Shown here: positions 9,440 through 48,265 of the stretch, piece by piece
How the letters are laid out: each line of letters starts with the position of its first letter
Position numbering within the stretch: the first letter of the stretch is position 1
Origin: an uncultured bacterium
Lineage (GTDB): Bacteria; Oederibacteriota; PGYV01; CAWJRG01
Reading direction: 5' to 3'
Assembly: GCA_963845185.1 (NCBI GenBank)
Contig: CAWJRG010000010.1
Location: 844,140-908,139, forward strand
DNA length: 64,000 nucleotides
The notes under the pieces: model-generated
What the model was told of the DNA's origin: nothing
What the model saw: only the letters and a program-made list of their open reading frames with translations
The model's database searches: none
Translations under genes and position numbers: made by a program

Positions 9440-9602
9440 GTACCGCTTGTCTGGGTAGTTTATTTATTAAATGATTAATGGAAACTGCCAGTCAAATAGT
9501 CCACAGGACTATTTGACTGGCTTGAGCCTCGGACTTGAACGGGTACAATATCTCGTAATGTTTTGTCTGCGCTATGAAGCTTGACAAAACAAACGATCTA
9601 TT
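9440..9602 (+). repeat. Family-1 two-hairpin structured element, copy 1 (long form)
   Basis: GTACCGCTTGTC...GGACTTGAACGGGTAC plus GTAATGTTTTGTCTGCGCT..AGCTTGACAAAACAAAC; abuts GGAGG at 9603. Confidence 0.88.
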
Positions 9603-9613
9603 GGAGGCAGAAA

Positions 9614-9940
9614 ATGAAACAAGGCATGATTGTAACGACAGCATTTGAGATTCCGGGAAAAGAGATAGTTGAAAGCAAAGGGCTTGTGAGGGGAATAATA
9701 GTCAGGTCGCCCACAATAGTACAGGGGATATTCGGAGGTTTGAAAACCATAATAGGCGGCAAAATAGGCGCATACACTGAAATGTGCGAGCAGGCCAGGG
9801 AGCAGGCATACGAGGCAATGGAAGAACACGCCGCGGCAATAGGCGCCAATGCAGTTATAGGCTGCCGTTATGACGCTTCTGAAGTTGCAGTTGGAGCAAC
9901 CGAAGTGCTTTGCTACGGCACGGCAGTGGTTGTAAGATAA
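9614..9940 (+). CDS. YbjQ/UPF0145 family (putative heavy-metal-binding) protein
   Basis: MIVTT..IPG, GLK.IIGG, AR..A..GANAVIG.RYD and YGTAV; ATG at 9614 follows the SD. Confidence 0.9.
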   Translation: MKQGMIVTTAFEIPGKEIVESKGLVRGIIVRSPTIVQGIFGGLKTIIGGKIGAYTEMCEQAREQAYEAMEEHAAAIGANAVIGCRYDASEVAVGATEVLCYGTAVVVR

Positions 9941-9968
9941 ACAGACACCATACGAACTGATTTTGTGT

Positions 9969-9997
9969 TTGACAAAGCAATTTTGAAAGCATATTAT
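9969..9997 (+). promoter_or_regulatory. Sigma70-type promoter
   Basis: TTGACA-17-TATTAT upstream of the tandem family-1 copies. Confidence 0.6.
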
Positions 9998-10054
9998 TTT
10001 ATGTACCTACGAAGAATAGTAGATTCGAAGCAATAAAAAAACAAATTATGCCCA

Positions 10055-10146
10055 GCACCTCTTGACCTCGGCCTTATGGCCTCGGACTGGAGCGGGTACA
10101 AGATAGTGTAATATTTTGTCAGCGCCTGTTGACGGCTTGGCCAAGT
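10055..10146 (+). repeat. Family-1 element, copy 2a (second hairpin truncated)
   Basis: GCACCTCTTGACC..GGACTGGAGCGGGTAC plus GTAATATTTTGTCAGCGCC..GGCTTGGCCAAGT. Confidence 0.8.
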
Positions 10147-10148
10147 GG

Positions 10149-10249
10149 ACACCGCTTGTCTTCGGCCTGATGGCCTCAGACTTGAACGGGTGTATGTCGA
10201 TGTAATTTTCGACTGCACCCAGCGGGTTTGTCTCAAAAACATCGACATA
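10149..10249 (+). repeat. Family-1 element, copy 2b
   Basis: ACACCGCTTGTCT..AGACTTGAACGGGTGT plus a TATGTCGATG/CATCGACATA stem; abuts GGAGG at 10250. Confidence 0.88.
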
Positions 10250-10259
10250 GGAGGAATTC

Positions 10260-10955
10260 ATGAAGAAAATATTATTAGTGTCAGTTTTATGCATGTTTGC
10301 GGTGTCAGTGGCTCTTGCACAGCCAAAGAAAACTACAAACGGGGATATGTTTTCCTATATCCCGTACAAGAGCGCTACATGGAAGCAAAAAACCACGGTT
10401 GAGAACGACGCAGGCGTCAATACAATAGAACAGTCTGTGTGGTTCAAAGACAAAAAGATGCGGACAGAAGGTACGTATCTGGACAAGGGAACAGGCAAGG
10501 AAGGGGACCAGATAATAATTGTCACGGATAAATACATGTACGTAATAATTCCCGAAAAAAAACAGGGCCTTCAATATTCCATGGACAGCGCGAATAATCC
10601 GGAAAAAGAACAGCAAAGCGTGGATAAATTCAGAAAAAACGCGAAGAAGACAGGGTCTGAAAAAATAAACGGTGTGGAATATGACATTTATAAATATTCA
10701 TTTAATACCAAAAACGGCGCAAATAAAATTTATGCGGAGATTACAGAATGGCGGAACCAGACAGACGGATTTCCGATGAAAACCGAAAGCTGGATGAAAA
10801 TCACCGGAGAACAAACAGGGACAATGAAGACAATAACCGAAATAAGCGATTTAAAGATAAATGCCGCGGTTCCAGACTCCAAATTCGTGCCTGACAGCGA
10901 TATTCAAATAGGGGATATGGACGAGATGCTGAAGAAGACTGGGCAGAATAAATAG
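10260..10955 (+). CDS. Secreted protein, DUF4412/LolA-like fold
   Basis: Signal peptide; W.KDKKMR.E, TGSEKING..YDIY and VPDSKF motifs. Confidence 0.6.
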   Translation: MKKILLVSVLCMFAVSVALAQPKKTTNGDMFSYIPYKSATWKQKTTVENDAGVNTIEQSVWFKDKKMRTEGTYLDKGTGKEGDQIIIVTDKYMYVIIPEKKQGLQYSMDSANNPEKEQQSVDKFRKNAKKTGSEKINGVEYDIYKYSFNTKNGANKIYAEITEWRNQTDGFPMKTESWMKITGEQTGTMKTITEISDLKINAAVPDSKFVPDSDIQIGDMDEMLKKTGQNK

Positions 10956-11009
10956 ATATAAAGCAACAGAGTTATTTTTTAAATATAAACAATTCGGAAG
11001 AGGTAACAA

Positions 11010-12038
11010 ATGGGAAGCGTAAAAGAAGTGAAAGTTTTAAAATCTGCGGAAAAAGACAAGGAAGGCGAAGGAGAATTCATATTTTCAGACAGGTATTCGG
11101 TTTTTGACTGGGGAGAAATGCCTGACCATATTGACAAAAAAGGAGCTGCCTTATGCGTGCTTTCGGCTTTTTTCTTTGATATTCTTGATAAAAAAGGCGT
11201 AAGAACGCATTTTTTAGGGCTTGTTGAAGATGGAAAAGCAAAAAAGTTCGCAGAATTAAAATCATATTCAAACAAAATGCGCGTCAAGCTGGTGAGGGTG
11301 CTAAAACCGGCTTACGACAGTCAAAAGAATTCCTATGATTACTCGGTTTACAACGGCGAAAAAGACAATTACCTTATTCCTCTCGAAGTGATTTACAGGA
11401 ATAAGCTGGGAGATGGTTCAAGCGTTTTTAAAAGACTCAAATCCGGGGCAATCACATATAAGGATATGGGGCTTGACCATGAGCCAAAGCCGGGAGAAGT
11501 TCTTGTTGAACCCATAATAGATGTTTCAACCAAGCTTGAGCATATCGACAGGTACCTTGGGTGGGAGGAAGCAGCGGCAATTTCAGGCCTTTCGCCGGAA
11601 GGCATAAAGAAAGTAAAAGACCTTACCCTGCTGATAAACGGCGTCATAAGCGAGTATACTAAAAAATACGGAATAGAAAACGAGGATGGAAAATTCGAGT
11701 TTGCCATAGACAGGGAAGAAAACACCATGCTTATAGACGTGCTCGGGACGCCGGATGAATGCAGGTTCTCATATAAAGGTTTCCACATAAGCAAGGAATT
11801 CGCAAGGCGCTGGTACAGGAAAACAGAATGGTTTAACGAGGTTGAAAAGGCAAAAAAGGAAAGGGGCCGCGACTGGAAAAAGTTTGTAAAAATAAAGCCG
11901 GAGCCGTTGCCGGATGAGATGAAAATCCTCCTGTCGCACATGTACCTCGCAGTTACAAATGAAATAACAGGCAGGAGATTTTTTGATGTGCCCGAGCTTC
12001 CAAAAATCATAGAGGAGTTGAAAAAATATGACACCTGA
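11010..12038 (+). CDS. purC: SAICAR synthetase, long type
   Basis: GSVK, FSDRYSVFDWG, IPLEVIYRN, STKLE, DGKFEF and DVLGTPDECRF motifs. Confidence 0.93.
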   Translation: MGSVKEVKVLKSAEKDKEGEGEFIFSDRYSVFDWGEMPDHIDKKGAALCVLSAFFFDILDKKGVRTHFLGLVEDGKAKKFAELKSYSNKMRVKLVRVLKPAYDSQKNSYDYSVYNGEKDNYLIPLEVIYRNKLGDGSSVFKRLKSGAITYKDMGLDHEPKPGEVLVEPIIDVSTKLEHIDRYLGWEEAAAISGLSPEGIKKVKDLTLLINGVISEYTKKYGIENEDGKFEFAIDREENTMLIDVLGTPDECRFSYKGFHISKEFARRWYRKTEWFNEVEKAKKERGRDWKKFVKIKPEPLPDEMKILLSHMYLAVTNEITGRRFFDVPELPKIIEELKKYDT

Positions 12039-12633
12039 AAATGTCCTGGCATACCGCCTGAGGGTGTTGAACAAAACAAAACAATATTATTACGGGGATA
12101 CTTTGCTTGATGTGGGCTGCGGTGACGGCCTGGATGATGAGCTTATGCTGAAATATTTCAAAAGAATAGAGGGAATAGACATAAATGAAAATCCGGCGTG
12201 GAACGAGCACAGGAGGGAAAACCTTATATTGAAGAAAGCAGATGCGGAAAACCTGGATTACCCGGACAATAGCTTTGATACTGTCATAGAAAAAGACGTA
12301 CTGCACCACGTGTCTGACCCGGAAAAAGCCTTAAAAGAAATGACAAGAATAGCAAAGAAAAGAATAATACTAATAGAGGCAAACCGGTATAACCCGCTTT
12401 TTTACATTTTTTTGACTTTAATGTGGAAACACAACCATTTCAGACAGAAAAGATTCAAAGAACTTGTAAAGTCAAGCGGCCTGCAGTCGGAAATTATGCA
12501 TTTTTCCGCAAGAGTATGCCCAATAAACAACAGCGGATTTATAAAGTTTTTTGACAAACTGGAAGATCTTATTGAGAAATTCCCGCCTTATACGCCCATA
12601 ATAGAATACAACCTGGCAATAATAACAAAATAA
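12028..12633 (+). CDS. Class I SAM-dependent methyltransferase
   Basis: LLDVGCGDG, DAENL.YPDNSFD and VLHH motifs. Confidence 0.88.
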   Translation: MTPENVLAYRLRVLNKTKQYYYGDTLLDVGCGDGLDDELMLKYFKRIEGIDINENPAWNEHRRENLILKKADAENLDYPDNSFDTVIEKDVLHHVSDPEKALKEMTRIAKKRIILIEANRYNPLFYIFLTLMWKHNHFRQKRFKELVKSSGLQSEIMHFSARVCPINNSGFIKFFDKLEDLIEKFPPYTPIIEYNLAIITK

Positions 12634-13688
12634 TGCTTACCAGGATTGATAATGTTTTAAAAACAATAACAAAAAACCAAGCATTTTATATTTCCAACGC
12701 CTCAGATATTTTTTACCTTACAGGTTTTTCGGGGACTTTTGCCAGGATAATTGTAAAAGAAAAAAAAGCACATTTTATAACCGATTACAGATATGAAAAA
12801 GTCGTTGAAAAAACAGGCATTGAAAAAAAATTCAACGTAATAATAACAAAAGACCATGTAAAAGATACTAGGCTGCTTTTATCAGAGAGCAAAAAAGTTT
12901 ATATGAGCAAAAAGACGCAGCTTGAGGAATATTTTTCAGTCAAGGACGGCATGGGTAAAGAAATAGAGTTCAGCAGCCTTATAAGCGATTTGAGGATGAT
13001 AAAGGATAACGAGGAAGTAGAGCTCATAAAAAATGCGGTAAAAATAATCGAAGCAGGAATTAAATATATAACTTCCATTATAAGGGAAGGCATGAGCGAA
13101 AAAGACCTTGCAACAGAACTTGAATATTTTATAAAGAAAAACGGAGCTGAATCAATGTCTTTCCCGCCAATCATAGCCTTCGGGCAAAACTCAAATAGCC
13201 CGCATCATATAACTTCCATGAAAAAGCTGAAAAAAGGCGATGTAATCCTGATGGATACTGGCGTAAAATACAATGGTTATTGTTCTGACTTGACAAGGGT
13301 GGCAGGCTTCGGTATAATCAAATCTCGCCTAAAAGAGGTGGAAAAAAACTATAATCTTGTGCAGGAAGCCAAAAAAATAAGCCTTGATTCCTACAGGATA
13401 GGCATTTTCATAAATAAAGCCGAGCAAAAAGCAAGGGAATTCCTTAAGAAATGCGGGCTTGAGCGGTTTTTTACCCATTCGCTCGGACATTCCCTTGGAA
13501 TAGATATACATGAATTACCGGCATGCAATTTAAAGGAAAATACCAGATTCAAAAAAGGACTGGTTTTGACCTGCGAGCCCGGAATATATTTAAAAAATTA
13601 CGGTATAAGAATAGAAGATGATTACCTGATAACCAGTGCAGGGCCGGAAAAGCTCGGCAGGATGAAAGATGATCTTATTGTGATTTAA
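12633..13688 (+). CDS. Xaa-Pro aminopeptidase (M24 family)
   Basis: YLTGFSG, D.G...GYCSDLTR, HSLGHSLG..IHE, EPGIY and GIRIED; lies directly upstream of efp. Confidence 0.93.
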   Translation: MLTRIDNVLKTITKNQAFYISNASDIFYLTGFSGTFARIIVKEKKAHFITDYRYEKVVEKTGIEKKFNVIITKDHVKDTRLLLSESKKVYMSKKTQLEEYFSVKDGMGKEIEFSSLISDLRMIKDNEEVELIKNAVKIIEAGIKYITSIIREGMSEKDLATELEYFIKKNGAESMSFPPIIAFGQNSNSPHHITSMKKLKKGDVILMDTGVKYNGYCSDLTRVAGFGIIKSRLKEVEKNYNLVQEAKKISLDSYRIGIFINKAEQKAREFLKKCGLERFFTHSLGHSLGIDIHELPACNLKENTRFKKGLVLTCEPGIYLKNYGIRIEDDYLITSAGPEKLGRMKDDLIVI

Positions 13689-13751
13689 CGATTTGACAAT
13701 AAAATAGTTTAACAAACAAATGCAAAAATAATATCAAGGAGGCAAAGTTTT

Positions 13752-14315
13752 ATGTCTTTAGCAACAGATTTAAGGCCAGGTGCCATTATAAAACACGAGG
13801 GCATAATTTACGAGATAATATATTACCACCATGTCCAGAGGCCCAGGCTGGCGCCGCTGGTGCGTTTAAAAATGAAAAACATTAAACTTGGCACAGTTAC
13901 AGAAAGGACTTTCAGCCCTGATGATAAAATGGAAGACGTGGCAGTTGAAGAAAGAAAACTCCAGTTTCAGTACAGGCAGGGAGATTCGCTTCATTTTATG
14001 GATACGGATTCTTATGAACAATACGAGTTTAACGAAAAGCAGATAGGCGAGCAGAGCCATTACCTGAAAGAGGAAATGACAATATCCATGATGATATATG
14101 AAGGAGAAATCCTCGGCGTTGTTGTTCCGAACAAGGTGGATTTAAAAGTAGCGCAGGCGCCACCTGCGGTAAAAGGCGATACGGTGAGCAACGCAACAAA
14201 AACAGCGGTGCTGGAAACAGGAACACAGGTACAGGTGCCGCTTTTTATAAAAGAAGGTGATACCGTCAGAGTCGACACAAGGACAGGAGAGTATGTGGAA
14301 AGGGTAAGCAATTGA
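13752..14315 (+). CDS. efp: Elongation factor P with a non-canonical loop
   Basis: KGDT, LETG..VQVPLFIKEGD..RVDTRTGEYVER C-terminal signature. Confidence 0.97.
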   Translation: MSLATDLRPGAIIKHEGIIYEIIYYHHVQRPRLAPLVRLKMKNIKLGTVTERTFSPDDKMEDVAVEERKLQFQYRQGDSLHFMDTDSYEQYEFNEKQIGEQSHYLKEEMTISMMIYEGEILGVVVPNKVDLKVAQAPPAVKGDTVSNATKTAVLETGTQVQVPLFIKEGDTVRVDTRTGEYVERVSN

Positions 14316-14395
14316 CAAATCCGGGTGAAAATCCCGTAAAATATAACCGGCTTGATGAAAAAATAAAGCAATAAATTAAAAAGGCGGTGTAAAAA

Positions 14396-14911: not shown

Positions 14912-14929
14912 ACTGCAAAGGATGGCACA

Positions 14930-16276: not shown

Positions 16277-16289
16277 TTTGAGGTGATTT

Positions 16290-16652: not shown

Positions 16653-16671
16653 TAACTAAAGGAGGACTTAC

Positions 16672-17229: not shown

Positions 17230-17231
17230 TA

Positions 17232-17890: not shown

Positions 17891-17909
17891 GGATAAGGCC
17901 GGTGCGGCA

Positions 17910-18539: not shown

Positions 18540-18561
18540 TAATATAAAAATACAAAATAAG

Positions 18562-18590: not shown

Positions 18591-18617
18591 AGATAATTGC
18601 AATAACGGAGTTTAAAT

Positions 18618-36310: not shown

Positions 36311-36688
36311 ATGAAATTGATAATTGACGGTTATAACCTGATTTACAGGCTGGTATTAAAAGCAGAAAGCCTTGAAAAAAAGCGCGATAAACTGCTTGAA
36401 CTGCTGAATGAGTTTCTCGAGATAAATGGCGGGACTATTACCGTAGTATTTGACGCTGGCAAAAACCCGTCGCAGCACAGGGGCAGGGAAACACGCGGTA
36501 AAGTAAAAGTTGTATATTCAGCAAACGACGAAATTGCGGACGACGTAATAATAGAGCTGATAAAAGGCAGAAAAGGCAGGGCGCGCGAATACGCAATAGT
36601 GTCGTCGGACAACAAGCTGCTTGATTGCGCAAGGGAAAATTTTATGAATGCGATGACAAGCGACGATTTCGCGGAATATTTAAGTTGA
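36311..36688 (+). CDS. NYN-domain (YacP/Rae1-like) ribonuclease
   Basis: IIDGYNL, VVFDA, ADD.I and VSSD motifs. Confidence 0.88.
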   Translation: MKLIIDGYNLIYRLVLKAESLEKKRDKLLELLNEFLEINGGTITVVFDAGKNPSQHRGRETRGKVKVVYSANDEIADDVIIELIKGRKGRAREYAIVSSDNKLLDCARENFMNAMTSDDFAEYLS

Positions 36689-36689
36689 T

Positions 36690-36853
36690 CCCACTTGGGG
36701 GTAGTTTTTATATTAAATAACTTGTGGTAACAACCCGTTAAATAGTCTACCAGACTATTTAACCTCTTGGCCGTAGGCCTTAGACTTGAACGGGTACAAG
36801 ATATTGTAATGTTTTGTCTGCGCCTTCGGCTTGACAAAACAAACGTTATCTTG
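36690..36853 (+). repeat. Family-1 element, copy 3 (long form)
   Basis: Shares the GGGTAGTTT.. and AAATAGTC/GACTATTT insert with copy 1, then AGACTTGAACGGGTAC and GTAATGTTTTGTCTGCGCCTTCGGCTTGACAAAACAAAC. Confidence 0.88.
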
Positions 36854-37516: not shown

Positions 37517-38113
37517 ATGAAAAACAAAACTTTATTTTTAGCAATTCTTTTAACTGCGGCAATAAGCTCCAGCCTGCTTGCAGACAACAGGCTTATTTTC
37601 ACGGAATTTGGCATTAGTTACGCTTCCATGATAGCGCCGCCTGTTCTTGAGAACAACACAACAGGAGTTTTTGATACTGCTTCTTTGGACGTAAAAGCAG
37701 GAGTGGATATCTTAAAATGGGCGGATGTATACGCCGGAGGCGGTTTAATGTTTTTTGCCTTAAGACCAAATTCCGCAGAGAACTATACTTTTTACCCGAT
37801 TTATGGCGGTATACGCGCAAATATTTTTCCGGACTGGATTGTTTATCCTGGAGTGCTTTTTGAATTAGGAAAAGCAATATCCAGCCAGCACTTGAATAAT
37901 GAATTAATGTCACAATTAGGTCCCCTTTATTCACCCCTTGATTATTCCTGGGCCGGGACATATTATAATTTTGGTTTTGACCTGAACATGAACGTAAATG
38001 ATATAGCAATACTTTCACTTAAAATAGACAGGCCTGCTATCAGCAGCGGCGACACAAAATTAGGCGAAATTCAAATTTTCAGGGTTGGTCTTGCCTGGAA
38101 AATGCTGTATTGA
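37517..38113 (+). CDS. Small outer-membrane beta-barrel-like protein
   Basis: Signal peptide, amphipathic strands, aromatic C-terminus. Confidence 0.55.
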   Translation: MKNKTLFLAILLTAAISSSLLADNRLIFTEFGISYASMIAPPVLENNTTGVFDTASLDVKAGVDILKWADVYAGGGLMFFALRPNSAENYTFYPIYGGIRANIFPDWIVYPGVLFELGKAISSQHLNNELMSQLGPLYSPLDYSWAGTYYNFGFDLNMNVNDIAILSLKIDRPAISSGDTKLGEIQIFRVGLAWKMLY

Positions 38114-38123
38114 GGTGAAAACA

Positions 38124-39560
38124 ATGAAAATAAAACAATTAATCATAATTTTACCGGCTATACTATTTTTCTCAATAAACCTATACTCTGCAGAACCAAA
38201 ATCTGCAATAGCAGCAAGTGAAGGCACGGCTGCAGCAGCTACGGCACAGCCTACTGCAAATGCAACAGTTACTCCATCAAATGCGTTAATCCTGACATAT
38301 GACGACTGCTACAAGATGGCTTCTGAAAAAAACCGTGATTTCCGCATGGCTAAAATGGACAAGATAATAGCTGAATCTGAAATGCAGAAGGGCATAGCTG
38401 CTTTCGGACCGAGTATCTCACTTTCAGGCGGATACGAGCCGATAAATGTACCTGCCCCAACTGCTCCAGGCAATACACTTTATGATTTTGTCGGAGCCTA
38501 TTTACCTGCAAATTTTCATTCACCATTTTATTTGAGCCTAGCCCCTCAATTTTATTACATGGCCCAAATAACATTGTCACAGCCTATTTTTACTTTTGGA
38601 AAAACATTTTTTGGATTTAAGATTGCAGATGAAGCATACAAGATAGCAAAAATAAAATTCAATAAAGCGGAACAAAAGCTTACGCTTGACGTAATAAACG
38701 CTTTTTACGGAGCCCTGATTGCTCAGGAACTTAACGATGTGCAGCAGGAGGCACTTAAAGCAAATGAGGAATATTTAAGGATAACGAAAACAAAATACGC
38801 AAATGGACAGGCGTCAAACTTCGACGTTTTACAGGCACAGGTGCAGTATGCAAACTCTTTACCTGACGCAAAAAAAGCAGAGGATGGAGTAATAATTGCA
38901 AAACAAATGCTGAAAAACACACTTGGCCTGCCGCTTGACCAGGAAATAACCCTGTCGGGCACAACTGAATATAAAAAATTTGAAATGACCTATGATGAAA
39001 TAGAAAAGAAATTTAAAGAGAAGAACAACGACAGGGAAATGATTGAAGCAGCGGCAAATATTGCAAAATATACAAAAGATTTAGAGGCTGCAATGCTTTT
39101 GCCAAATATAGGACTAAATGCAAATTATGATTATGTTTCTTCGGACCCTGCATTTCACCACGAAGCCTGGGACTGGCAGTCATCCTGGACAGTCATGGTA
39201 GGATTACAGTGGACATTTTTTGACAGTTTTAAAAATGTAGCATCGCTAAGGGAAGCAGCTGCCGCAGAGGAAAAAGCCAACCTTAGCAAGGAAAATACGG
39301 ACAATCTTTTGAAAATACAGCTCGACCTGTTTTACACATCGCTGGAAGAATCAAAGCAGATTATAGAGGCGGCTGATGACCTGATAAAGCAGGCGCAGGA
39401 AGGCTACAGGATAGCGAAGGAAAGCTATAAAAACGGGCTTATCCAGAGCGTGGATCTCTTAAATTCCGAAACTGGGCTGCTGCGCGCAAAGATAAATTAC
39501 CTTAACGCAATGATGAACTACATAACAACGGCTCAGACATTAAGGAATTTTGTGGAATAA
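38124..39560 (+). CDS. TolC-family outer membrane efflux protein
   Basis: Two OEP repeats (YANGQASNFDVLQAQ and YKNGL...DLL). Confidence 0.92.
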   Translation: MKIKQLIIILPAILFFSINLYSAEPKSAIAASEGTAAAATAQPTANATVTPSNALILTYDDCYKMASEKNRDFRMAKMDKIIAESEMQKGIAAFGPSISLSGGYEPINVPAPTAPGNTLYDFVGAYLPANFHSPFYLSLAPQFYYMAQITLSQPIFTFGKTFFGFKIADEAYKIAKIKFNKAEQKLTLDVINAFYGALIAQELNDVQQEALKANEEYLRITKTKYANGQASNFDVLQAQVQYANSLPDAKKAEDGVIIAKQMLKNTLGLPLDQEITLSGTTEYKKFEMTYDEIEKKFKEKNNDREMIEAAANIAKYTKDLEAAMLLPNIGLNANYDYVSSDPAFHHEAWDWQSSWTVMVGLQWTFFDSFKNVASLREAAAAEEKANLSKENTDNLLKIQLDLFYTSLEESKQIIEAADDLIKQAQEGYRIAKESYKNGLIQSVDLLNSETGLLRAKINYLNAMMNYITTAQTLRNFVE

Positions 39561-39565
39561 ATTCC

Positions 39566-39667
39566 GCACCTCTTGTCCTGGGCCTGGCGGCCTCGGACTT
39601 GAACGGGTGCATGCAAGAGTAATATTTTGCTGCGCCCTTTAGGGGCTTACAAAATAAACTCTTGCAT
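39566..39667 (+). repeat. Family-1 element, copy 4 (inside the operon)
   Basis: GCACCTCTTGTCC..GGACTTGAACGGGTGC plus an ATGCAAGAG/CTCTTGCAT stem; abuts AGGAGG. Confidence 0.9.
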
Positions 39668-39676
39668 AGGAGGAAT

Positions 39677-40621
39677 ATGATGCAAAGAAAACAGATGAAA
39701 CAAATAGGAATATGGATATTGATAGTAATTCTGGCAATAATACTTATTCAGGTTGTTATTAGTATTGCAAAAAGCATAAAAAAACCTGAAGAGCTTGTTT
39801 TTAATGTGAACACAGTCAAGCTTCAAAAACAGAAGTTACAACATATCCTGACCGTCCAGGGGATACTTGAAGGTGACCCTCAGGTCAAAGTATACCCCCA
39901 GGTACCTGGAAAGTTCGCAAAGAATGTGGTTGCCGAGGGTGACAGCGTAAAAAAGGAAGATGTGCTGGCATATCTCGACAGGGACATGGTCGGGTATAAA
40001 TACGAACTCGCGCCAGTCAAGTCGCCGGCGTCAGGGATAGTTACAAAGTTATATTATACAGATAAAGGCGACGCAGTAAGCCCGGAAATGCCTGTTGCAG
40101 AAATTGGAAACGAGGATAATGTAAAAGTCGTTTTTAACCTTGGACAGGACGATTTGTTAAAGGTACATAAAGGGCAACCTGTCCAGATATTCTTTGTTGA
40201 TGACCCGGCTATTTCCATTGATGGCGAAGTTTTTTCAGTCCCGCCGGTGGTAGATACGGACATTATGGCCGGTACAGTTGTCGTAAAGGCGCCGAATAAG
40301 GCAAAGACAATGAAAATAGGCATGTCGGTAAATGTGGAGATTTTAACGGGAGAAACAGACAGCTATATGATCCCTGAAAGAGCAGTCCTGCTTGGCGAAG
40401 ATTTTTCATATGTTTACATTGATAAGTCGGGCAAAGCAACGCAGGCAAAAGTGACGACCGGTATGAGGCAAAATGACTTAATAGAAATAGCAGGACCTCT
40501 GGCTGATGGTGACGAAGTAGTTACTGACGGGAATTTCAAATTATTTGAAGGTGCAAAGTTAAGCGCAGCTTCATCCCAGGTTACGTCGGTGCCTGTAACA
40601 ACAACAACTGCGGTAAAATAA
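39677..40621 (+). CDS. RND periplasmic adaptor 1, lacking the alpha-hairpin
   Basis: N-terminal TM, lipoyl halves, GMSV, IPERAV and GDEVVTDG motifs. Confidence 0.9.
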   Translation: MMQRKQMKQIGIWILIVILAIILIQVVISIAKSIKKPEELVFNVNTVKLQKQKLQHILTVQGILEGDPQVKVYPQVPGKFAKNVVAEGDSVKKEDVLAYLDRDMVGYKYELAPVKSPASGIVTKLYYTDKGDAVSPEMPVAEIGNEDNVKVVFNLGQDDLLKVHKGQPVQIFFVDDPAISIDGEVFSVPPVVDTDIMAGTVVVKAPNKAKTMKIGMSVNVEILTGETDSYMIPERAVLLGEDFSYVYIDKSGKATQAKVTTGMRQNDLIEIAGPLADGDEVVTDGNFKLFEGAKLSAASSQVTSVPVTTTTAVK

Positions 40622-40649
40622 ATTATTAACTTTAAAAGGAGTTTTTAAT

Positions 40650-43600
40650 ATGAATATAGCAGGACTTGCCATAAAAAGGCCTGTCTTTATAGTTATGTTG
40701 GTTGCAAGTTTAATAACAATAGGCCTTGTTGGTTATTTCAGCCTTTCAGTAGACCTTTTACCTAACGTGGAATTCCCAAATATCGTTGTTACAATAACAT
40801 ACCCGGGAGCTTCGGCTGAAGAAATGGAAAACCTAATAACAAAACCTTTGGAAGACTCTTTTTCCACACTTGAAGGGCTAGACAAAGTGATATCATCGTC
40901 AACTGAAGGGGTCTCTGTTGTAACAGCGCAATTCAAGCTCGGCGTTGATGTGAAATTTTCGGAAATAAAGGTGAGGGACAAGGTTGCGCTCACAAAAACA
41001 ATATTACCCGACGGCATAAACGAGCCGATAATACAGAGGTTCACTTTTGCGGACATACCTATACTTTTCATGTCTGTAGCCGGCAAGAGGGATACTGTAA
41101 CATTGCGCGAGCTTATAGAAGACAAAATACAGCCCCGCATAGAGCAGCTGCCGGGTGTAGCCTCCATATATATATGGGGCGGCAGGAAACGGATAGTAAA
41201 GATAACAGTCGATAAAGCCCTGCTCCTGGCAAATAAACTGAATATGAACCAGATTACAGCCGCTATAAGCAGCAGGGACCTGAATTCTCCTGTTGGTATT
41301 GTAGAAGGGCCTGAAAAAAACATTACAGTAAGGGTAAAAGGAGAGTTTGAAGATGTAAATCAGATAGCCAATACCCCTATTACCTCTATGTCCGGGAAAA
41401 TAGTCAGGATAAAGGACATTGCAAAAGTCGAGTTTACTGCAGAGGATGAAACCACCCGTGTGAGGGTTGGCAGTCAACCGGCAGCGTCATTTGCTGTTTT
41501 TAAGCAGAGCGGCGAGAATTCTGTACAAGTGGCAAAAGAGGTAATAAACGCAGTAAAAGATATCCAGAAAGACCTGCCCTCCGATGTAATTCTTGCGGTT
41601 AACGGCGATACAACCCGCGGTATTGTAAGGAGTATTGAGGGCGTCCAGGAAAACATATTAATTGGAGCCTTACTTGCCATACTTATAGTATGGCTTTTCC
41701 TGGGTAATTTCAGGTCTGCAATAATAACTGCAGTTGCGCTTCCTGATTCCATAATCGGCGCATTTTTTCTCATATGGATAGCAGGATTTTCGATAAACAC
41801 AATAACCCTGCTTTCGCTTGCCCTGGCGGTCGGGCTGCTTATAGATGATTCAATTGTCGTGCGCGAAAATATATTCAGGCATATTGAAGAGGGCATGAAG
41901 CCTATGGAAGCCGCGGAAAAAGGCACAAATGAAGTCGCGCTTGCTGTAATATCAACCACACTTTCCATAATGGCAGTATTCATTCCGATATCGTTTTTAT
42001 CCGGCATGATTGGCCAGTTTTTCAGGCAGTTTGGACTGACAGTGGCTTTTGCCCTGGGAGTTTCTTTGCTTGATGCTTTTACCATGGCACCCATGCTTTC
42101 CGCCTACTGGTACAGGAAAAGCGACGAAAAGAAGAGGACAGGCTTTATAAAGTGGGTTTACCAGCAATCGGATAACTGGAATAAATTTTACGATGAGCTA
42201 AAAAAAGTATACAAGGATATTATTGCATGGGCGCTCGAAAACAAGAAAAAGGTACTGCTTGCTGCTCTCATGCTTTTTGTGGCAAGCTTTAGTTCCTGCT
42301 TTTTCGTAGGAAAGGGATTCATGCAGCAGGATTCCGGGTACGCGATAATGAATATCCAGACTTATACAGGCGCGCCGCTCGATAAAACAGATTCCTACAT
42401 CAAAAAGCTGGAGGAGTTTGTGGCAAAACAGCCTGACGCTGAATCATATTTCATTATAACAGGCGGAGGATTTTCCCAGGACGCGAGGTCCAATACAGGC
42501 CTGCTTTTCATAACCATGAAGCCTTTAAGCCAGAGGAAGGTGACAAAGACAACAGATGATATGCAGCAGGTAGTGAGGAAGTATATCAAGGACCAGAAGC
42601 TCGATAAATATATAACAGCGGCTTTTGCCGTAGGTGGAGGCATGGGCGGTGACAGCAACTCAAACACGCCTGTCCTGATAACAATTGCGGGAGATGACTT
42701 AAGGGTATTGTCCCAAATAGGGGAGAAAATCAAAAAAATAGTCCAGTCCACTCCCGGAACAGCCGATGTCGACATTTCAATAAAACCGGGACAGCCGGAA
42801 ATAGTCCTGAAAGTGGACCCGATAAAATCTGAAAAACTTGGCCTTACAACCTATGATATATCCACTGCGTTAAGGACGCTGGTGCAGGGTTTGAAAATAG
42901 CCATATATAAAAAAGCTGAAAAAAATTATGACATCATAATGCAGATGAACAAGTCGGACAGGAAAGTCACAGACGACATCAAAAGCATTTACCTCACAAG
43001 CAAAACAGGCAAAAAAATACCGCTTACTGCCGTGGCTGATTTTGAATACAGCTCGGGCCCGACAGAAATAGACAGGGAAAATAAAACCAGGATCGTGCGC
43101 ATCACGGCAAACCTGGCCCCGGGCTATAACACCGGCATGGTTAACGCAAAAATACAGCAGGCACTTGATAAGGAAGTAAAGCTTCCGACGAATTACAGGT
43201 ACGTAGCCGGCGGCCAGCAAAAGCAGTTTATGGATGTTTTAACCCAGATGTCGCTTGCCATGCTGCTTGCGTTTTTATTTATGTACATGATACTGGCTTC
43301 ATTATATAATTCTTTTGTCCAGCCTTTTATTATAATGCTTTCTGTTATCCTGGCATTTATTGGAGGCCCGATAGCGCTGCTTATGACCGGTTACCAGCTT
43401 GACCTTTTTGCTTTTATAGGGCTTTTGATGGTCATGGGTTTAGCTGCAAAAAACGGAATATTACTGCTTGATTTCACAAACAAAATGCGTCAGCGCGGCA
43501 TGCAGATAAGGCAGGCGTTGCTGCACGCGGCACCAATACGGTTAAGGCCTATTTTGATGACGACTTTTGCCATGATATTTGGCATGTTGCCTATAGCATT

Positions 43601-43796
43601 GTCAATGGGCGAGGGGGCCAAGGGAAGGGAATCCCTGGCAGTTGTAGTAATAGGAGGACTTTTGACATCCACATTCCTTACACTGGTAATTGTACCTGTG
43701 GTTTATGAGTGGGTAGAGGGCAAACTGGAAAAAGGAAAAGAAAAAAAGACTGTCAAAAAAATAACTGGACGGGCAGCAAAAAAAATTATAGGATAA
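40650..43796 (+). CDS. RND efflux permease 1 (AcrB/SwrC-like)
   Basis: AIKRPV, YPGAS, GLLIDDSIVVREN, KNGILL and RLRPILMTT motifs. Confidence 0.96.
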   Translation: MNIAGLAIKRPVFIVMLVASLITIGLVGYFSLSVDLLPNVEFPNIVVTITYPGASAEEMENLITKPLEDSFSTLEGLDKVISSSTEGVSVVTAQFKLGVDVKFSEIKVRDKVALTKTILPDGINEPIIQRFTFADIPILFMSVAGKRDTVTLRELIEDKIQPRIEQLPGVASIYIWGGRKRIVKITVDKALLLANKLNMNQITAAISSRDLNSPVGIVEGPEKNITVRVKGEFEDVNQIANTPITSMSGKIVRIKDIAKVEFTAEDETTRVRVGSQPAASFAVFKQSGENSVQVAKEVINAVKDIQKDLPSDVILAVNGDTTRGIVRSIEGVQENILIGALLAILIVWLFLGNFRSAIITAVALPDSIIGAFFLIWIAGFSINTITLLSLALAVGLLIDDSIVVRENIFRHIEEGMKPMEAAEKGTNEVALAVISTTLSIMAVFIPISFLSGMIGQFFRQFGLTVAFALGVSLLDAFTMAPMLSAYWYRKSDEKKRTGFIKWVYQQSDNWNKFYDELKKVYKDIIAWALENKKKVLLAALMLFVASFSSCFFVGKGFMQQDSGYAIMNIQTYTGAPLDKTDSYIKKLEEFVAKQPDAESYFIITGGGFSQDARSNTGLLFITMKPLSQRKVTKTTDDMQQVVRKYIKDQKLDKYITAAFAVGGGMGGDSNSNTPVLITIAGDDLRVLSQIGEKIKKIVQSTPGTADVDISIKPGQPEIVLKVDPIKSEKLGLTTYDISTALRTLVQGLKIAIYKKAEKNYDIIMQMNKSDRKVTDDIKSIYLTSKTGKKIPLTAVADFEYSSGPTEIDRENKTRIVRITANLAPGYNTGMVNAKIQQALDKEVKLPTNYRYVAGGQQKQFMDVLTQMSLAMLLAFLFMYMILASLYNSFVQPFIIMLSVILAFIGGPIALLMTGYQLDLFAFIGLLMVMGLAAKNGILLLDFTNKMRQRGMQIRQALLHAAPIRLRPILMTTFAMIFGMLPIALSMGEGAKGRESLAVVVIGGLLTSTFLTLVIVPVVYEWVEGKLEKGKEKKTVKKITGRAAKKIIG

Positions 43797-43823
43797 ATGC
43801 AGACTAAATATACATATGCAATT

Positions 43824-43862
43824 ACAGGCAGCCGAGGATTTAATCCCGCGGTTGCCTGTTTC
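43824..43862 (+). terminator. Intergenic hairpin between the RND modules (terminator- or REP-like)
   Basis: ACAGGCAGCCG...CGGTTGCCTGT followed by a short T run. Confidence 0.45.
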
Positions 43863-43891
43863 AGTTTATGGACAAGAACCCGGAGTCGAAA

Positions 43892-44788
43892 ATGAAAAAG
43901 ATACTTAAAAATTCAGCACTTGCGTTGTTGGCACTGATTGCCGCGCTTATGATATTCAGGATAGCGGCCAAAATAATACAGGGCGCTGAGAAAAATAAAG
44001 AGCTGTTATACACAGTAGCCGGGAAAACCCTGAAGCCGGAAAGTGTCGATGTGATAATCAGGCTGAACGGAAACGCAGAGGGAGACCCGCAGGTGATGTC
44101 TTTCCCCATGCTTTCCGGGAAATTCGATAAAAATATTGTAAGTGAAGGCCAGCAGGTACAAAAGGGCCAGATAATAGCATATATCGACAGGGATATTGCC
44201 GGAGGCGGCTTTGAGCTTGAGCCTGTAAAGGCAGCATCAGGCGGAATGGTCATAAAGCTTTATTACAGGGACAAAGGCGCAGAGGTATGGACAAACAGGC
44301 CCATAGCCGAGACAGGAGACAGCTCTGTAATAAAAGTATCAATTCCTGTGGGGCCGGAAGAAACCGAAAAGATAAAAAAGGGTATGGCTGCGAAAATTTA
44401 TCCTGCAAATGACCCGGAGCAGGGAATAGAGGCCTCAGTTGAAAGTGTCACTCCATTTGTTAACGGCGAAAACTCAGATGGAAGAGTGATTGTCAAAGGC
44501 AAAAATGCTGACGGAAAAATAAAAATAGGAATGAATGTGACAGTAGAAGTCAACACAGGAACAAAGCAGGCTTTTATGGTGCTTGAAAGGGCAGTGCTGC
44601 TCGGACAGGGCAGGGCATACGTTTTTATCAATGACCACGGCATAGCCCGCGAGCGATGGGTAAAGACGGGGTATATTAAAGGCGACTATATTGAGATAAG
44701 CGGCGACATAAAAGAGGGAGAGCAGATAGTGGTAAACGGGGCATTCATGCTGAATGACGGCGCGAAAATAGACTTCAAGGAACAATAA
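43892..44788 (+). CDS. RND periplasmic adaptor 2, lacking the alpha-hairpin
   Basis: Paralog of 39677 (EGDPQV, GKF.KN, DRD..G...L.PVK); start could also be 43868. Confidence 0.88.
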   Translation: MKKILKNSALALLALIAALMIFRIAAKIIQGAEKNKELLYTVAGKTLKPESVDVIIRLNGNAEGDPQVMSFPMLSGKFDKNIVSEGQQVQKGQIIAYIDRDIAGGGFELEPVKAASGGMVIKLYYRDKGAEVWTNRPIAETGDSSVIKVSIPVGPEETEKIKKGMAAKIYPANDPEQGIEASVESVTPFVNGENSDGRVIVKGKNADGKIKIGMNVTVEVNTGTKQAFMVLERAVLLGQGRAYVFINDHGIARERWVKTGYIKGDYIEISGDIKEGEQIVVNGAFMLNDGAKIDFKEQ

Positions 44789-44790
44789 AA

Positions 44791-47700
44791 ATGAATTTAC
44801 CTGAAATTGCAGTTAAAAGGCCGGTTTTTATAGTAATGATAGTTGTCGCAATTATTACACTCGGCTTAATAGGCTATTCAAGAATGGCAGTTGAGCTCGT
44901 GCCAAATGTCGAGTTTCCAACAATAACGATCATGACTGTTTACCCCGGCGCGTCTTCGGAGGAAATAGAAAACCTAGTCTCAAGGCCGATAGAAGACTCG
45001 CTTGCAGCGGTGGAAGGAATAGAAAAGATAAGCTCGACTTCTTCAGAAGGGCTGTCGGAAGTAAATGTGCAGTTTAACCTGGGGACAGACATAAAATTTT
45101 CCGAAATAAAAGTCAGGGAAAAGGTACAGCTTGTCAAGCCAACCCTGCCAAAAGATATAGACGACCCTATAGTGAGCAGGTTTTCTTTCCAGGATATAGA
45201 GGTCATAGACGCGTCAATAAAGGGCAACTTTGACCTTTTCAAGCTCAGGCAGCTTGCCGAAGACGTGGTAAAGACCAGGCTTGAAAAACTGCCCGGGGTG
45301 GGAGACGTGGAAATATGGGGCGGCAGGGAAAAGGAAGTAAAAATAGCAATATCAAAAGCGCTGCTTATCGCAAAGGGAGTAGGGCTTGATACAGTAATAA
45401 AAGCAGTCGCTTCGGAAAATGTAAACTATCCTGTCGGCGTCATGAAACGCGACGAGAAAAACGTGACGGTAAGGGTAAAGGGGAAGTTTGAGACAATACA
45501 GGACATAGAAAACCTGCCGATAAAAACATATATGGGCTCGACAGTCCGGCTCAAGGATATCGCAAAAGTTACGTTTGACCTGAAAGAAGAGATGTCAAAA
45601 GCGCGTACCATGGGGACAAACGGGGTCATGTTCAGTGTTTTCAAGCAAAGCGGGTCAAACTCGATACAGGTCGCGGACGAGGTAACAGAAGCGCTGAAAC
45701 ATATGAAAAAATACCTTCCCGAGGGAGTCGAAACAAATGTAATTTACGATACCACGGTTTATATAAGGCACAGCGTATCAGGAGTCCAGGAAAATATAAT
45801 AATCGGGGCGCTGCTTGCCATACTTGTGGTATGGCTGTTTTTGGGGAATTTCCGATCCACCATGATAACTGCCGTGGCTTTGCCGGACTCTTTGCTAGGA
45901 GCTTTTTTCCTGGTGTGGCTTGTCGGTTACTCGATAAACGTGATTTTGCTCATGGCTTTATCGCTTGCCATAGGCCTGCTTATAGACGACTCGATAGTTG
46001 TGCGCGAAAATATTTTCAGACACGTGGAAGAGGGCATGGGAAACAAGGAAGCCGCTGTAAAAGGCACAAACGAGGTTTTTATGGCAGTAATTGCGACCAC
46101 CCTGTCGATAATGGCTGTTTTTATACCTATATCCTTCATGACGGGCATAATAGGCAAAATGTTCAGCCAGTTTGGTTTTACGATAGCTTTTGCCCTGGTC
46201 ATCTCGCTTTTTGACGCTTTCACTACAGCACCCATGCTTTCGGCTTACTGGTATAAAAAAGAGGAGCCGCATAAGAAAGGATTTGCGAAATTCGCGGCAG
46301 ACCTTTCAAAAAAATGGAATGAATTTTATTATAACTTAAACGACATTTACAAGGAAATACTGCTGTGGGCACTGGGCAGAAAGTGGACAGTAATAGGCGT
46401 CTCGGCCATGCTTTTTGGCGCCAGTTTTTTTATTGTGCCGTATCTTGACAAAGGATTTTTTAACGCAGGCGACGAGGGTATGTTTACAGTAAATGTGGAA
46501 GCGTATCCGGGAGCTCCAATAGGCAGGCTTGACAGCGACTTGAAGGCAATAGAGGCATTTATAATGAAACAGCCTTCGGTTGAAAGTTATTTTTCACGCA
46601 TTGGCGGAGGAAGGTCGGCGGCGGACCAGAACCAGGGATTTATTTTCGGGACAATGAAGCCTGAGGGAAAAAGAATATTATCATCCAAGGAACAGTCCCA
46701 GGTAATAAAGGATTATATAAGGAAAAATTTCGGCAGGGAGCTTTTTGTTTACGAGGAAACGCACGGCGCAGAGGCGGTACTTTCCGGCTCAAACAGCACA
46801 AGCCCTATCACACTTGAAATAAAAGGCGACGACCTTACGGTTCTGGAAGACCTTGGCAGGCAGGCAAAGAAAATAGCGCAGGAGATACCGGGAGCAATAG
46901 ACGTAAACACCTCTTTCAAGCCCGCAAAACCGGAGCTGGTTGTAAAACTTGACAGGACAAAGGCGGCAAAGCTCGGGATATCGACAGCTGAAATAGGGCA
47001 GACCCTGAATACTTTAATAGAGGGATATAAGATTTCCGATTACAGGAGCGAAGGAAAGGACTACGATATTGTAGTGCGGATGGATAAAAAAGACATATCC
47101 ACGGTTGACGACCTGCATGGACTGATGATTACAACACAGACAGGCGCAAAGGTGCCCCTGGATGCTGTCGCGACAATTTACTATTCATCGGCGCCGGTTG
47201 AGATACTGCGTGAAGACAAGACAAGGATGGTAAAGATAAATGTGAACGTAGCAAAAGGCTACTCACTCGGTGAGATAGTGGTAAAAATTGATAAAAGGCT
47301 GAAAAAAGAAATAAATTGGCCGGAGGGGTATATGTACGAGTTTACCGGCGAGGACAAACAGATGAAAGACATGGCAACGCAGATGATACTTGTTATACTT
47401 CTTTCTGTGCTGTTTATGTACATGATACTCGCATCGCTTTATAACTCTTTTATCCAACCTCTTATCCTGATGCTGTCTGTACCTCTGGCAATCATAGGGG
47501 CTTTTACAGCACTTTTGATTACAAAAAAGCCGCTCGATATGATGGGATTTATAGGGATACTCATGGTGCTCGGGCTTGTGGCAAAAAACGCGATACTGCT
47601 TATAGATTTTACAAACAAGAAAAGGGAGCAAGGCATGTCTATAAGGGAAGCATTATTACACGCGGGCCCTGTACGCCTGAGGCCAATACTTATGACGACA

Positions 47701-47916
47701 TTTGCCATGATATTCGGCATGTTGCCCATTGCGCTTGGCATAGGCGAGGGCGGCCGCGGCATGGAATCAATGCCTGTGGCTGTGATAGGCGGGCTGTTGA
47801 CTTCCACTTTCCTTACTCTGATAGTGGTACCTGTTGTATATGAACAGGTTGAGACTTGGTTGGAAAAAAGAAAAGCTTATAAAGTAAAAGGCTTAAAAGC
47901 TAAAAAAATAAATTAA
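44791..47916 (+). CDS. RND efflux permease 2
   Basis: Close paralog of 40650 with the same motifs. Confidence 0.96.
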   Translation: MNLPEIAVKRPVFIVMIVVAIITLGLIGYSRMAVELVPNVEFPTITIMTVYPGASSEEIENLVSRPIEDSLAAVEGIEKISSTSSEGLSEVNVQFNLGTDIKFSEIKVREKVQLVKPTLPKDIDDPIVSRFSFQDIEVIDASIKGNFDLFKLRQLAEDVVKTRLEKLPGVGDVEIWGGREKEVKIAISKALLIAKGVGLDTVIKAVASENVNYPVGVMKRDEKNVTVRVKGKFETIQDIENLPIKTYMGSTVRLKDIAKVTFDLKEEMSKARTMGTNGVMFSVFKQSGSNSIQVADEVTEALKHMKKYLPEGVETNVIYDTTVYIRHSVSGVQENIIIGALLAILVVWLFLGNFRSTMITAVALPDSLLGAFFLVWLVGYSINVILLMALSLAIGLLIDDSIVVRENIFRHVEEGMGNKEAAVKGTNEVFMAVIATTLSIMAVFIPISFMTGIIGKMFSQFGFTIAFALVISLFDAFTTAPMLSAYWYKKEEPHKKGFAKFAADLSKKWNEFYYNLNDIYKEILLWALGRKWTVIGVSAMLFGASFFIVPYLDKGFFNAGDEGMFTVNVEAYPGAPIGRLDSDLKAIEAFIMKQPSVESYFSRIGGGRSAADQNQGFIFGTMKPEGKRILSSKEQSQVIKDYIRKNFGRELFVYEETHGAEAVLSGSNSTSPITLEIKGDDLTVLEDLGRQAKKIAQEIPGAIDVNTSFKPAKPELVVKLDRTKAAKLGISTAEIGQTLNTLIEGYKISDYRSEGKDYDIVVRMDKKDISTVDDLHGLMITTQTGAKVPLDAVATIYYSSAPVEILREDKTRMVKINVNVAKGYSLGEIVVKIDKRLKKEINWPEGYMYEFTGEDKQMKDMATQMILVILLSVLFMYMILASLYNSFIQPLILMLSVPLAIIGAFTALLITKKPLDMMGFIGILMVLGLVAKNAILLIDFTNKKREQGMSIREALLHAGPVRLRPILMTTFAMIFGMLPIALGIGEGGRGMESMPVAVIGGLLTSTFLTLIVVPVVYEQVETWLEKRKAYKVKGLKAKKIN

Positions 47917-47984
47917 AAAATATGGTACGAAAAGCAATCTAGTTCTTATTATTATGAGGGACAGTTACTATAAAAATTATAGAC

Positions 47985-48058
47985 AAAAACCCGGGGCATT
48001 ACCCTCCAAACCCCCTCTTATTAATTCCCCTTATTTTGCCCCGGGTCTTTTTTATTTT
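47985..48058. terminator. Bidirectional terminator-like hairpin with a 38-nt C-rich loop
   Basis: AAAA-ACCCGGGGCA/TGCCCCGGGT-CTTTTTT. Confidence 0.55.
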
Positions 48059-48095
48059 GATATTTTATATAAACCATAAAATATTAACAAAATAC

Positions 48096-48124
48096 TTGAC
48101 AAACAATAAAATATCAATTATAAT
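48096..48124 (+). promoter_or_regulatory. Sigma70 promoter
   Basis: Perfect TTGACA-17-TATAAT upstream of family-1 copy 5. Confidence 0.75.
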
Positions 48125-48171
48125 TAATGCACTAAGGATAAAAATAGAATTGTTAGTTTAAAAAACAAAGA

Positions 48172-48265
48172 GTACCACTTGTCCCTCGCAAGTTCGGGAC
48201 TGGAACGGGTATAAGCAAGAGTAATATTTTGCTGTACCCTGAAGGTTTGCAAAATAAACTCTTGC
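48172..48265 (+). repeat. Family-1 element, copy 5 (in a predicted 5' UTR)
   Basis: GTACCACTTGTCCC..GGGACTGGAACGGGTAT plus GCAAGAGTAATATTTTGC..GCAAAATAAACTCTTGC; followed by ATAGGAGG. Confidence 0.9.

Follow-up and report, generated by a model that had tools for sequence, protein, structure and literature searches.

Small structured repeats dispersed between bacterial genes are a known kind of element. Among them, PATEs, which derive from IS200/IS605 elements, and REP/REPIN sequences are moved by Y1 HUH transposases; they have hairpin ends, cause no target duplication, and lie in one orientation beside a short motif. BOX elements in Streptococcus pneumoniae, ERIC sequences in enterobacteria, and BIMEs are modular, mosaic structured intergenic repeats that are cotranscribed with their neighbors, and to our knowledge they keep no fixed contact with ribosome-binding sites and occur in both orientations. 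For the Neisseria REP2 repeat (a contact-regulatory element) and the IR-A/IR-B repeats of Borrelia plasmids, a review describes repeats of 100 to 180 bp that lack terminal inverted repeats, carry two internal stem-loops, lie immediately upstream of unrelated open reading frames (ORFs), and are reported to contain a promoter along with a ribosome-binding site and ATG codon (PMC3184786). In marine Beggiatoaceae, TAACTGA direct repeats occupy about 170 sites per genome, mostly a few nucleotides from start codons, with no pattern in the downstream functions and with an unknown mode of spreading (PMC4679880). Here, we describe a repeat family from a 64-kb stretch of DNA (the window) that covers positions 844,140 to 908,139 of contig CAWJRG010000010.1 from an uncultured bacterium of the phylum Oederibacteriota (assembly GCA_963845185.1). 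Its unit is ∼100 nucleotides (nt) long and consists of two adjacent domains, A and B, each of which forms its own hairpin. We found the family to be large, covarying in its helices, biased in orientation and position, precisely inserted, turned over at one site, nested with other repeats, and followed by diverse genes. With moderate confidence, we read it as a mobile structured leader, i.e., a nonautonomous element that inserts in a single orientation and leaves no duplication, its landing site being the 5′ edge of motifs resembling the Shine-Dalgarno sequence (SD).

The REP2 and Borrelia repeats are closest to the present element in behavior, with two stem-loops and a position before unrelated ORFs in common, a likeness of architecture and placement. 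The present element differs from REP2 in that it ends before the SD, in that the SD-like motif is the target's own, in that promoters are separate from it, and in its number of 170 to 190 copies. The TAACTGA repeats are similar in number and position, but they are short unstructured heptamers as opposed to a 100-nt covarying two-hairpin element. The copies are dispersed over seven contigs and do not form a cassette array as integron attC sites do (no integrase search was made). Neither a description of the element nor one of such SD-edge targeting turned up in the open-access literature, and the landing site is unusual and apparently undescribed.

An earlier note on this DNA, made from the letters alone, had listed six copies in the window, starting at 9440, 10055, 10149, 36690, 39566, and 48172. 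We read the copies at these positions, aligned them, and built a covariance model (R1) solely from 10149-10249, 39566-39667, and 48172-48265. Searched against the window, R1 gave six matches, all on the + strand and none elsewhere: the three seed copies (39566-39667, 109.8 bits; 10149-10248, 108.6 bits; 48172-48267, 89.4 bits) and the three others (36755-36852, 47.1 bits, E value 2e-9; 9506-9602, 46.8 bits, E value 2.4e-9; 10055-10117, 33.7 bits, E value 3.8e-6). All six copies are real; a model of three recovers the rest. As a count, however, six falls short ∼30-fold. In the host genome (3.50 Mb in 11 contigs, rated 99.4% complete), iterated nhmmer searches retrieved 171 copies, and separate domain profiles gave 166 matches to domain A and 168 to domain B, which combine into 190 units: 150 with both domains, 24 with domain B only, 15 with domain A only, and 1 with domain B inverted. 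R1 matched 131 of 150 scored candidates, and a second covariance model (R2), built from 55 copies including some from relatives, matched 149 of 150. The copies are spread over their seven contigs among housekeeping genes.

The two motifs that the earlier note had given, RYACC-NCTT-GTCY-[hairpin]-RGAC-TKGARCG-GGTRY for domain A and a second one for domain B, are seen in the copies, as are the compensatory stem changes between window copies. In an alignment of 55 sequences (A3), which was fitted to the model and thereby favors the structure, 92.3% of cells are paired, versus 72.9% after shuffling (none of 500 shuffles reached the observed value) and 33 to 43% with slid partners; both partners vary at 31 of the 35 pairs. 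When 101 parsed host copies are joined in a minimum spanning tree, 152 compensatory double changes fall on it, versus 8 to 17 for slid pairs. Helix sequences in relatives are completely different while the internal loops are the same. With covariation this strong on both the alignment and the tree, the proposal that the structure is under constraint held up. Minimum free energy folding returned two hairpins and a single-stranded ribosome-binding site for copies 39566 and 48172 (z scores of −6.25 and −3.03) and a different fold for copy 10149, and copy 10055 folded no better than its shuffles (z score of −0.81). K-turn, loop E, and tetraloop-receptor readings of the internal loops were considered as possibilities. 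A promoter within domain B, which has a TTGACA-like loop, was rejected, as it has no suitably spaced −10 box behind it.

Among the order's remaining 23 genomes, R2 found 21 matches in G014, 8 in G023, 5 in G019, 4 each in G001 and G003, 3 in G008, 2 each in G020 and G021, and 1 each in G009, G016, and G017; there was no match in 12 of the order's 24 genomes, and R1 matched none of 17 genomes from other orders of the phylum. Following an exact-pattern scan of 185,579 species genomes, strong R2 matches remained only in metagenome-assembled genomes (MAGs) titled “candidate division FCPU426” and in a few unclassified MAGs. The pattern-scan matches in Streptomyces and other actinomycetes scored 18 to 31 bits with R2 and were taken as chance. 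Nor does the element belong to a described RNA family, as had been surmised, since nothing in Rfam 15 came near its gathering score: at the gathering threshold the whole window contains only a tRNA, a search of 9300-10400 at E values up to 10 returned a single chance miRNA match, and 19 related loci searched at E values up to 0.1 gave nothing above about 37 bits, all well below gathering scores. Hairpin-ribozyme and group II intron families were not among the Rfam matches.

We then examined placement relative to genes, using crude ORF picking (2,780 ORFs). The next gene is co-oriented in 174 of the 190 units, and about two-thirds touch the SD of that gene. Of 151 intergenic units, 97 have a co-oriented start at most 30 nt beyond their end. 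This is unlike BOX, ERIC, and BIME sequences as we know them. Among the 139 nhmmer matches that reach the end of the model, 96 have the start codon of an ORF of at least 50 amino acids within 30 nt, an SD-like motif being present in 88 of them. Of the 101 intact copies that were parsed, 61 combine an SD-like motif at most 10 nt away with a start codon at most 30 nt away. The copies resemble each other up to the last helix and no further; beyond it the 3′ flank reads AGGAG, and the 5′ flank is merely A/T rich. Units occur behind promoters as well as between cistrons, and a co-oriented upstream gene ends within 10 nt in 18 cases. The family is thus strongly oriented across the genome and not randomly placed, so that on this point the cis-regulatory reading offered by the earlier note stood. 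Elements on the minority strand amount to ∼13 of 189 versus ∼14% of crude gene calls, a comparison that was judged uninformative, being confounded by the very strong gene-strand bias and by spurious ORFs. The GC skew of the genome is very strong, with about 85 to 90% of called genes co-oriented with the inferred direction of replication, and it switches near C9:720 kb and at C10:770-800 kb, the latter about 50 to 70 kb before the window. Behind about seven copies (e.g., G000:C9:671475, C5:32833, and C1:208374), a T-rich direct-repeat module (TTTTCAATTTTCAAT-like) that they have in common takes the place of the SD.

Insertion itself can be read from a second repeat, W, a multihairpin sequence of about 130 nt that contains GGGAGG and has 42 matches in the genome. 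Both flanks of the copy at C6:76379 are adjacent to each other at nine other loci, which are empty sites in W. Four W copies are filled at the identical point, between ...CTCCG and GGGAGG..., with fillings from two subfamilies, and filled and empty sites differ by no target duplication, only a 1-nt G ambiguity. Since the empty sites also contain GGGAGG, the purine motif is part of the target rather than of the element; since no start codon lies behind it, the insertion site was not chosen through selection on translation. Empty sites, whose discovery speaks against a purely cis-regulatory reading, therefore do exist. Together with the turnover and nesting described below, they make the other reading that the earlier note had offered, that of a structured nonautonomous mobile element, the best fit. 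With classical miniature inverted-repeat transposable elements, the family shares small size, lack of coding capacity, multiple copies, and filled/empty polymorphism, but terminal inverted repeats are absent (the 5′ end, RYACC-N-CTTG, is not complementary to the 3′ end, AAAC plus a helix strand), as is target-site duplication at the filled W sites. One W copy lies in the window at 8752-8844, in frame within the 5′ part of a thuA-like ORF, whose ortholog on contig L057 (see below) lacks 29 nt of the repeat, and another lies just before a tRNA-like sequence.

The elements also serve as targets. Module X, a 65-nt repeat with two hairpins, has 66 nhmmer matches in the genome, about two-thirds of them full length, and it lies almost always inside or beside elements and rarely elsewhere. 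Its insertion points are the domain A hairpin, the upper internal loop of domain B, and the space between element and SD. A tandem array of seven to eight copies with an exact 100-nt period precedes a 1,099-amino-acid ORF (L086 4930-5700; G000:C9:916430-917176, minus strand), and a relative has an array of three copies with a 98-nt period (G014:C31:7617-7909). Truncated copies and module swaps are also present in the genome.

Within the window, the copies and the features that belong to them are as follows.

9440..9602, + strand: copy 1, made up of the domain A 5′ arm (9440-9452), module X (9453-9517), the rest of domain A (9518-9546), and domain B (9547-9602).
9453..9517, + strand: module X in copy 1, a separate 65-nt two-hairpin repeat nested in domain A.
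9969..9997, + strand: promoter-like site TTGACA-17-TATTAT upstream of copies 2a and 2b, 11 of 12 consensus positions; sequence kept in L057.
10055..10148, + strand: copy 2a, degraded and displaced from the ribosome-binding site; matched by R1 over 10055-10117 only, at 33.7 bits.
10149..10249, + strand: copy 2b, intact and of another subfamily; ends at the AGGAGG of a secreted-protein gene (10260-10955, 231 amino acids).
36690..36852, + strand: copy 36690, made up of a damaged 5′ arm (36690-36698), module X (36699-36764), and the rest of domain A plus domain B (36765-36852).
39566..39667, + strand: copy 39566, intact; fills the gap between an outer-membrane efflux gene (38085-39560) and AGGAGG (39668-39673).
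48096..48124, + strand: promoter-like site TTGACA-17-TATAAT, 48 nt upstream of copy 48172, 12 of 12 consensus positions.
48172..48267, + strand: copy 48172, intact; ends at the AGGAGG (48268-48273) of a probable lipoprotein gene (48280-49071, 263 amino acids).

Contact with a ribosome-binding site, which had been claimed for copies in the window, was seen for those at 9440, 10149, 39566, and 48172, which end 0 to 1 nt before GGAGG or AGGAGG, but not for the one at 36690, which directly follows the stop codon of a YacP-like NYN gene (36311-36688) and has no ribosome-binding site behind it. Copy 1 spans the gap from the stop of the thuA-like gene (9438) to the GGAGG (9603-9607) of ybjQ (9614-9940), whose product matches Pfam YbjQ_1 with an E value of 2.5e-34. 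Copy 2a has mismatches in both domain A helices and has lost the final ∼12 nt of domain B, i.e., the 3′ strand of the basal helix. The RND adaptor gene at 39680-40621 lies behind copy 39566, and the efflux genes there match the Pfam families OEP, HlyD, and ACR_tran; no Pfam family was found for the 231-amino-acid secreted protein (10260-10955) or the 263-amino-acid probable lipoprotein (48280-49071). Both upstream promoters that had been proposed match the consensus well, and these promoter-like sites lie 48 to 58 nt upstream of the repeats and outside them. What had been taken for a long variable hairpin in copies 9440 and 36690 turned out to be the separate nested repeat, module X (9453-9517 and 36699-36764; the corresponding nhmmer match at genome C10:880838-880902 is window 36699-36763). 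A second pair of RND adaptor and pump genes (43868-47916) directly follows the first (39680-43796), with no element before it.

The closest relative of the window is a metagenome contig, L057, of which 6.7 kb were compared. Its ThuA protein is 74% identical to that of the window, and synteny extends from thuA to a SAICAR-synthase-like gene; 14 other metagenome loci with ThuA relatives (32 to 56% identity, and one with 82% over only 22 residues) contain no element. In L057, a single copy abuts the corresponding AGGAGG before the secreted-protein gene; this copy belongs to a different subfamily from copy 2b (52 of 97 positions identical), and the degraded copy 2a is 71 of 87 identical to it. This is most simply read as the arrival at the SD of a new copy (2b), which displaced an old one (2a).

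For the mobile structured leader, we propose the following course of events. The family would spread as DNA, inserting orientation specifically and without duplication at the 5′ edge of SD-like purine motifs, and each copy would become the 5′ untranslated or intercistronic RNA of the gene behind the motif. New copies would land beside the ribosome-binding site and push older ones upstream, which would then decay or form tandem arrays. The hairpins and conserved internal loops may serve as recognition features for a putative mobilizing enzyme, which would probably act on folded single-stranded DNA. In the transcript, the element is predicted to fold on itself and leave the ribosome-binding site free, acting as a neutral or mildly beneficial insulator or stabilizer and not as a ligand-sensing switch.

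The possibility of such a switch had been raised by the earlier note, which offered a new riboswitch class or other cis regulator for envelope genes as one of its two readings. In its favor are covarying stems with conserved internal loops in 5′ leaders, a layout in common with Rfam riboswitches and leaders, and the four window genes behind intact copies, which encode a member of the YbjQ family, a secreted protein, the RND adaptor of a pump, and a lipoprotein. Unlike Rfam riboswitches, however, the element has no Rfam match, no coherent regulon, and no expression platform. No shared function links the proteins encoded downstream of 25 further copies; they include a ribosome hibernation factor, LemA, a NuoF-like subunit, IlvD, PhoU, a Kelch lipoprotein, a GH5 cellulase with a type IX secretion system tail, an ABC ATPase, a nitroreductase, PEBP, a cupin, MetRS, an isochorismatase, two methyltransferase-type proteins, a beta-CASP nuclease, RidA, and a radical SAM enzyme, among others. 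This removes the envelope regulon and makes a riboswitch with a specific ligand very unlikely. Promoter and terminator scans showed no terminator-like site after the window copies, and neither a terminator nor an alternative fold that sequesters the SD was visible in window scans, folds, and ensembles. About 100 genes carry the element; copies occur in tandem, nested, and truncated forms; and an orthologous site has been turned over. A ligand-sensing leader for envelope genes is thus hardly credible, and as a lesson for annotation, covariation in a 5′ leader alone is insufficient for a riboswitch call.

Several observations weigh against the mobile structured leader as well. First, no mobilizing enzyme was found in the searches made. 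The Y1 transposase model (PF01797) and the TnpB model (PF07282) both had no match in the host genome, while control genomes were matched. The host genome has seven IS110-family genes and six identical reverse-transcriptase genes (possibly of a group II intron), but none of these 13 abuts a copy and only 3 have one within 4 kb. IS110 was rejected as the mobilizer, as it has unrelated insertion sites of its own and only one of its genes has an element within 4 kb; the reverse transcriptase was rejected as well, as its copies do not abut elements. Four IS110-family copies are identical (G000:C1:323041, C5:335702, C9:330368, and C10:445859), and three of the four have a left flank that contains CTCCC. 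The likeness to PATEs and REPINs lies in hairpin-based ends, the lack of duplication, and a single orientation; on the complementary strand, the element follows a CCTCC-like sequence. It differs from them in that no Y1 transposase or TnpB is detectable, in that its helices start at the very ends of the element, and in that no cognate autonomous element was found. Second, the SD-edge rule does not cover every host copy: among 30 intact copies that lack a start codon nearby, only 4 show an SD-like 3′ flank, against a background of 7%.

Third, the rule is not universal, since in family f10 of the order an A-tract plus GG and intrinsic terminators take the place of the SD. In terms of a PATE/REPIN-type motif, it is SD-like in the host genome and an A-tract plus GG in f10. 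The elements of G014, G019, G020, and G023 have no contact with ribosome-binding sites; an A-tract and unrelated hairpin/T-run terminators follow, for most copies within about 10 nt, and a TATTAT- or TTATAT-like sequence precedes the copies. The G001 copies are of the SD type, and common to the 3′ flanks is a purine run that ends in GG. In five genomes, one copy is located where a convergent gene terminates in conserved sequence. These sister families raise the question of whether the elements are independent small RNA genes there, with the SD-adjacent host copies as secondary insertions. Differing hairpin and T-run terminators after most copies, the −10-like sequences before them, and a best upstream promoter score of 7.3 of 12 versus 4.8 in shuffles would fit such genes. 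On the other hand, a promoter match of at least 9 of 12 occurs in none of 17 loci, the −10-like box ends 0 to 3 nt before the element, which leaves too little room for a transcript containing the first helix, and a scan of L051 found no promoter on the + strand and called a terminator on the opposite strand. We regard small RNA genes as decidedly improbable.

Finally, conservation of the copies is greater than expected for a mobile element that is left to itself. The ortholog of the ybjQ copy in L057 (L057:3725-3825) lacks module X but is otherwise 75 of 81 positions (93%) identical to copy 1, and over its full length it is most similar to this window ortholog. Nucleotide identity between window and L057 is 78% for thuA and 85% for ybjQ, and at the four-fold sites of the four flanking genes only 114 of 273 (42%) are identical. 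At this distance a neutral old insertion should have decayed, so that selection, gene conversion, or re-insertion is needed. Nonorthologous copies of the host and L057 are also 92 to 98% identical. Selection on SD-adjacent copies, gene conversion, or re-insertion from conserved source copies could each account for these values, and one orthologous pair cannot separate them. Furthermore, where one loop reads CUUG, the N of GA-N-CG is a purine in 114 of 117 copies, and where it reads CUCG, the N is a pyrimidine in 10 of 10, counts that come from related copies and are not independent events; this covariation outside the helices suggests a specific tertiary contact or a bound factor.

Such signs of constraint are real and leave room for an RNA-level role. 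The element could act in cis as an RNA module that serves the host in very many mRNAs, its spread by copying being secondary, which we consider rather unlikely on the whole. Similarly tentative are the functions that come to mind for it: it might bind a global posttranscriptional factor or the ribosome, block exonucleases, or be processed (as an RNase target or by self-cleavage) so that each mRNA gets a defined and insulated 5′ end. Besides the 93% identity of the ybjQ copy against 42% at four-fold sites, this view draws on subfamilies kept at 92 to 98% between two genomes with saturated synonymous sites, on a column entropy of 0.54 in internal loops versus 0.79 in stems and 1.36 in apical loops, on the covarying loop positions, and on copy 2a, where the copy displaced from the SD is the one with lost pairing. 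In 60 genes that lie behind an element, the SD is predicted to be unpaired with a mean probability of 0.67, versus 0.50 in 250 controls, and for the start codon the values are 0.77 versus 0.45, i.e., both are predicted to be more open than in controls, whose starts may be partly miscalled. A precedent for an abundant motif before start codons of unrelated genes exists in the TAACTGA repeats of Beggiatoaceae (PMC4679880).

Other features of the same data oppose a structure kept for RNA function only. Of 1,823 cells, 39 hold G-U pairs and 38 A-C mismatches; a structure selected as RNA would usually favor G-U, so this lack of enrichment weighs against it. The spanning tree carries 268 single changes that break pairs, and on this crude tree internal loops have 12.5 substitution events per site, no fewer than stems (10.8). 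Half of the order's genomes do without the element and most others have 1 to 8 matches, which points to dispensability; the f10 copies sit beside terminators and not ribosome-binding sites; and in W the insertion lies next to a GGGAGG without a start codon behind it. A combined scheme appears doubtful to us, although a shade less so than the small RNA genes: the element would be an RNA with its own biochemical activity, a self-cleaving or factor-recruiting two-domain fold that insulates mRNA leaders as a natural counterpart of synthetic 5′ untranslated region (5′-UTR) insulators, and its DNA copies would home to the 5′ edges of SDs by an undescribed mechanism, e.g., the folded element itself would recognize the purine motif and no known transposase family would take part.

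If the mobile structured leader is confirmed, it would be a small mobile element that lands at the upstream edge of ribosome-binding sites, placing a 100-nt folded RNA before about 100 unrelated genes, housekeeping genes included, without visible harm. The family supplies natural variants of a single, strongly covarying fold by the hundreds and shows how leaders can be swapped between genes, and the element may be a natural 5′-UTR insulator of practical use.

Beyond the insertions described above, some units are rearranged internally. Some copies join the 5′ half of domain A straight to the 3′ half of domain B. In at least eight units (e.g., G000:C5:749248-749412, C10:695603-695836, and C9:137908-138151), domain A stops after GAGCGG and is followed by a domain B-like module in reverse complement and a short extra hairpin, which suggests inversion or module exchange at the DNA level. 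In being gained, lost, and rearranged, the modules of the element resemble those of BOX, ERIC, and BIME sequences. A further palindromic repeat, of the GTAGGGGCGATTCACGAATCGCCC ... type, lies beside some elements in both the host and L057, namely, at L057 110-160 and in the G000:C10:562516 and C10:633184 regions.

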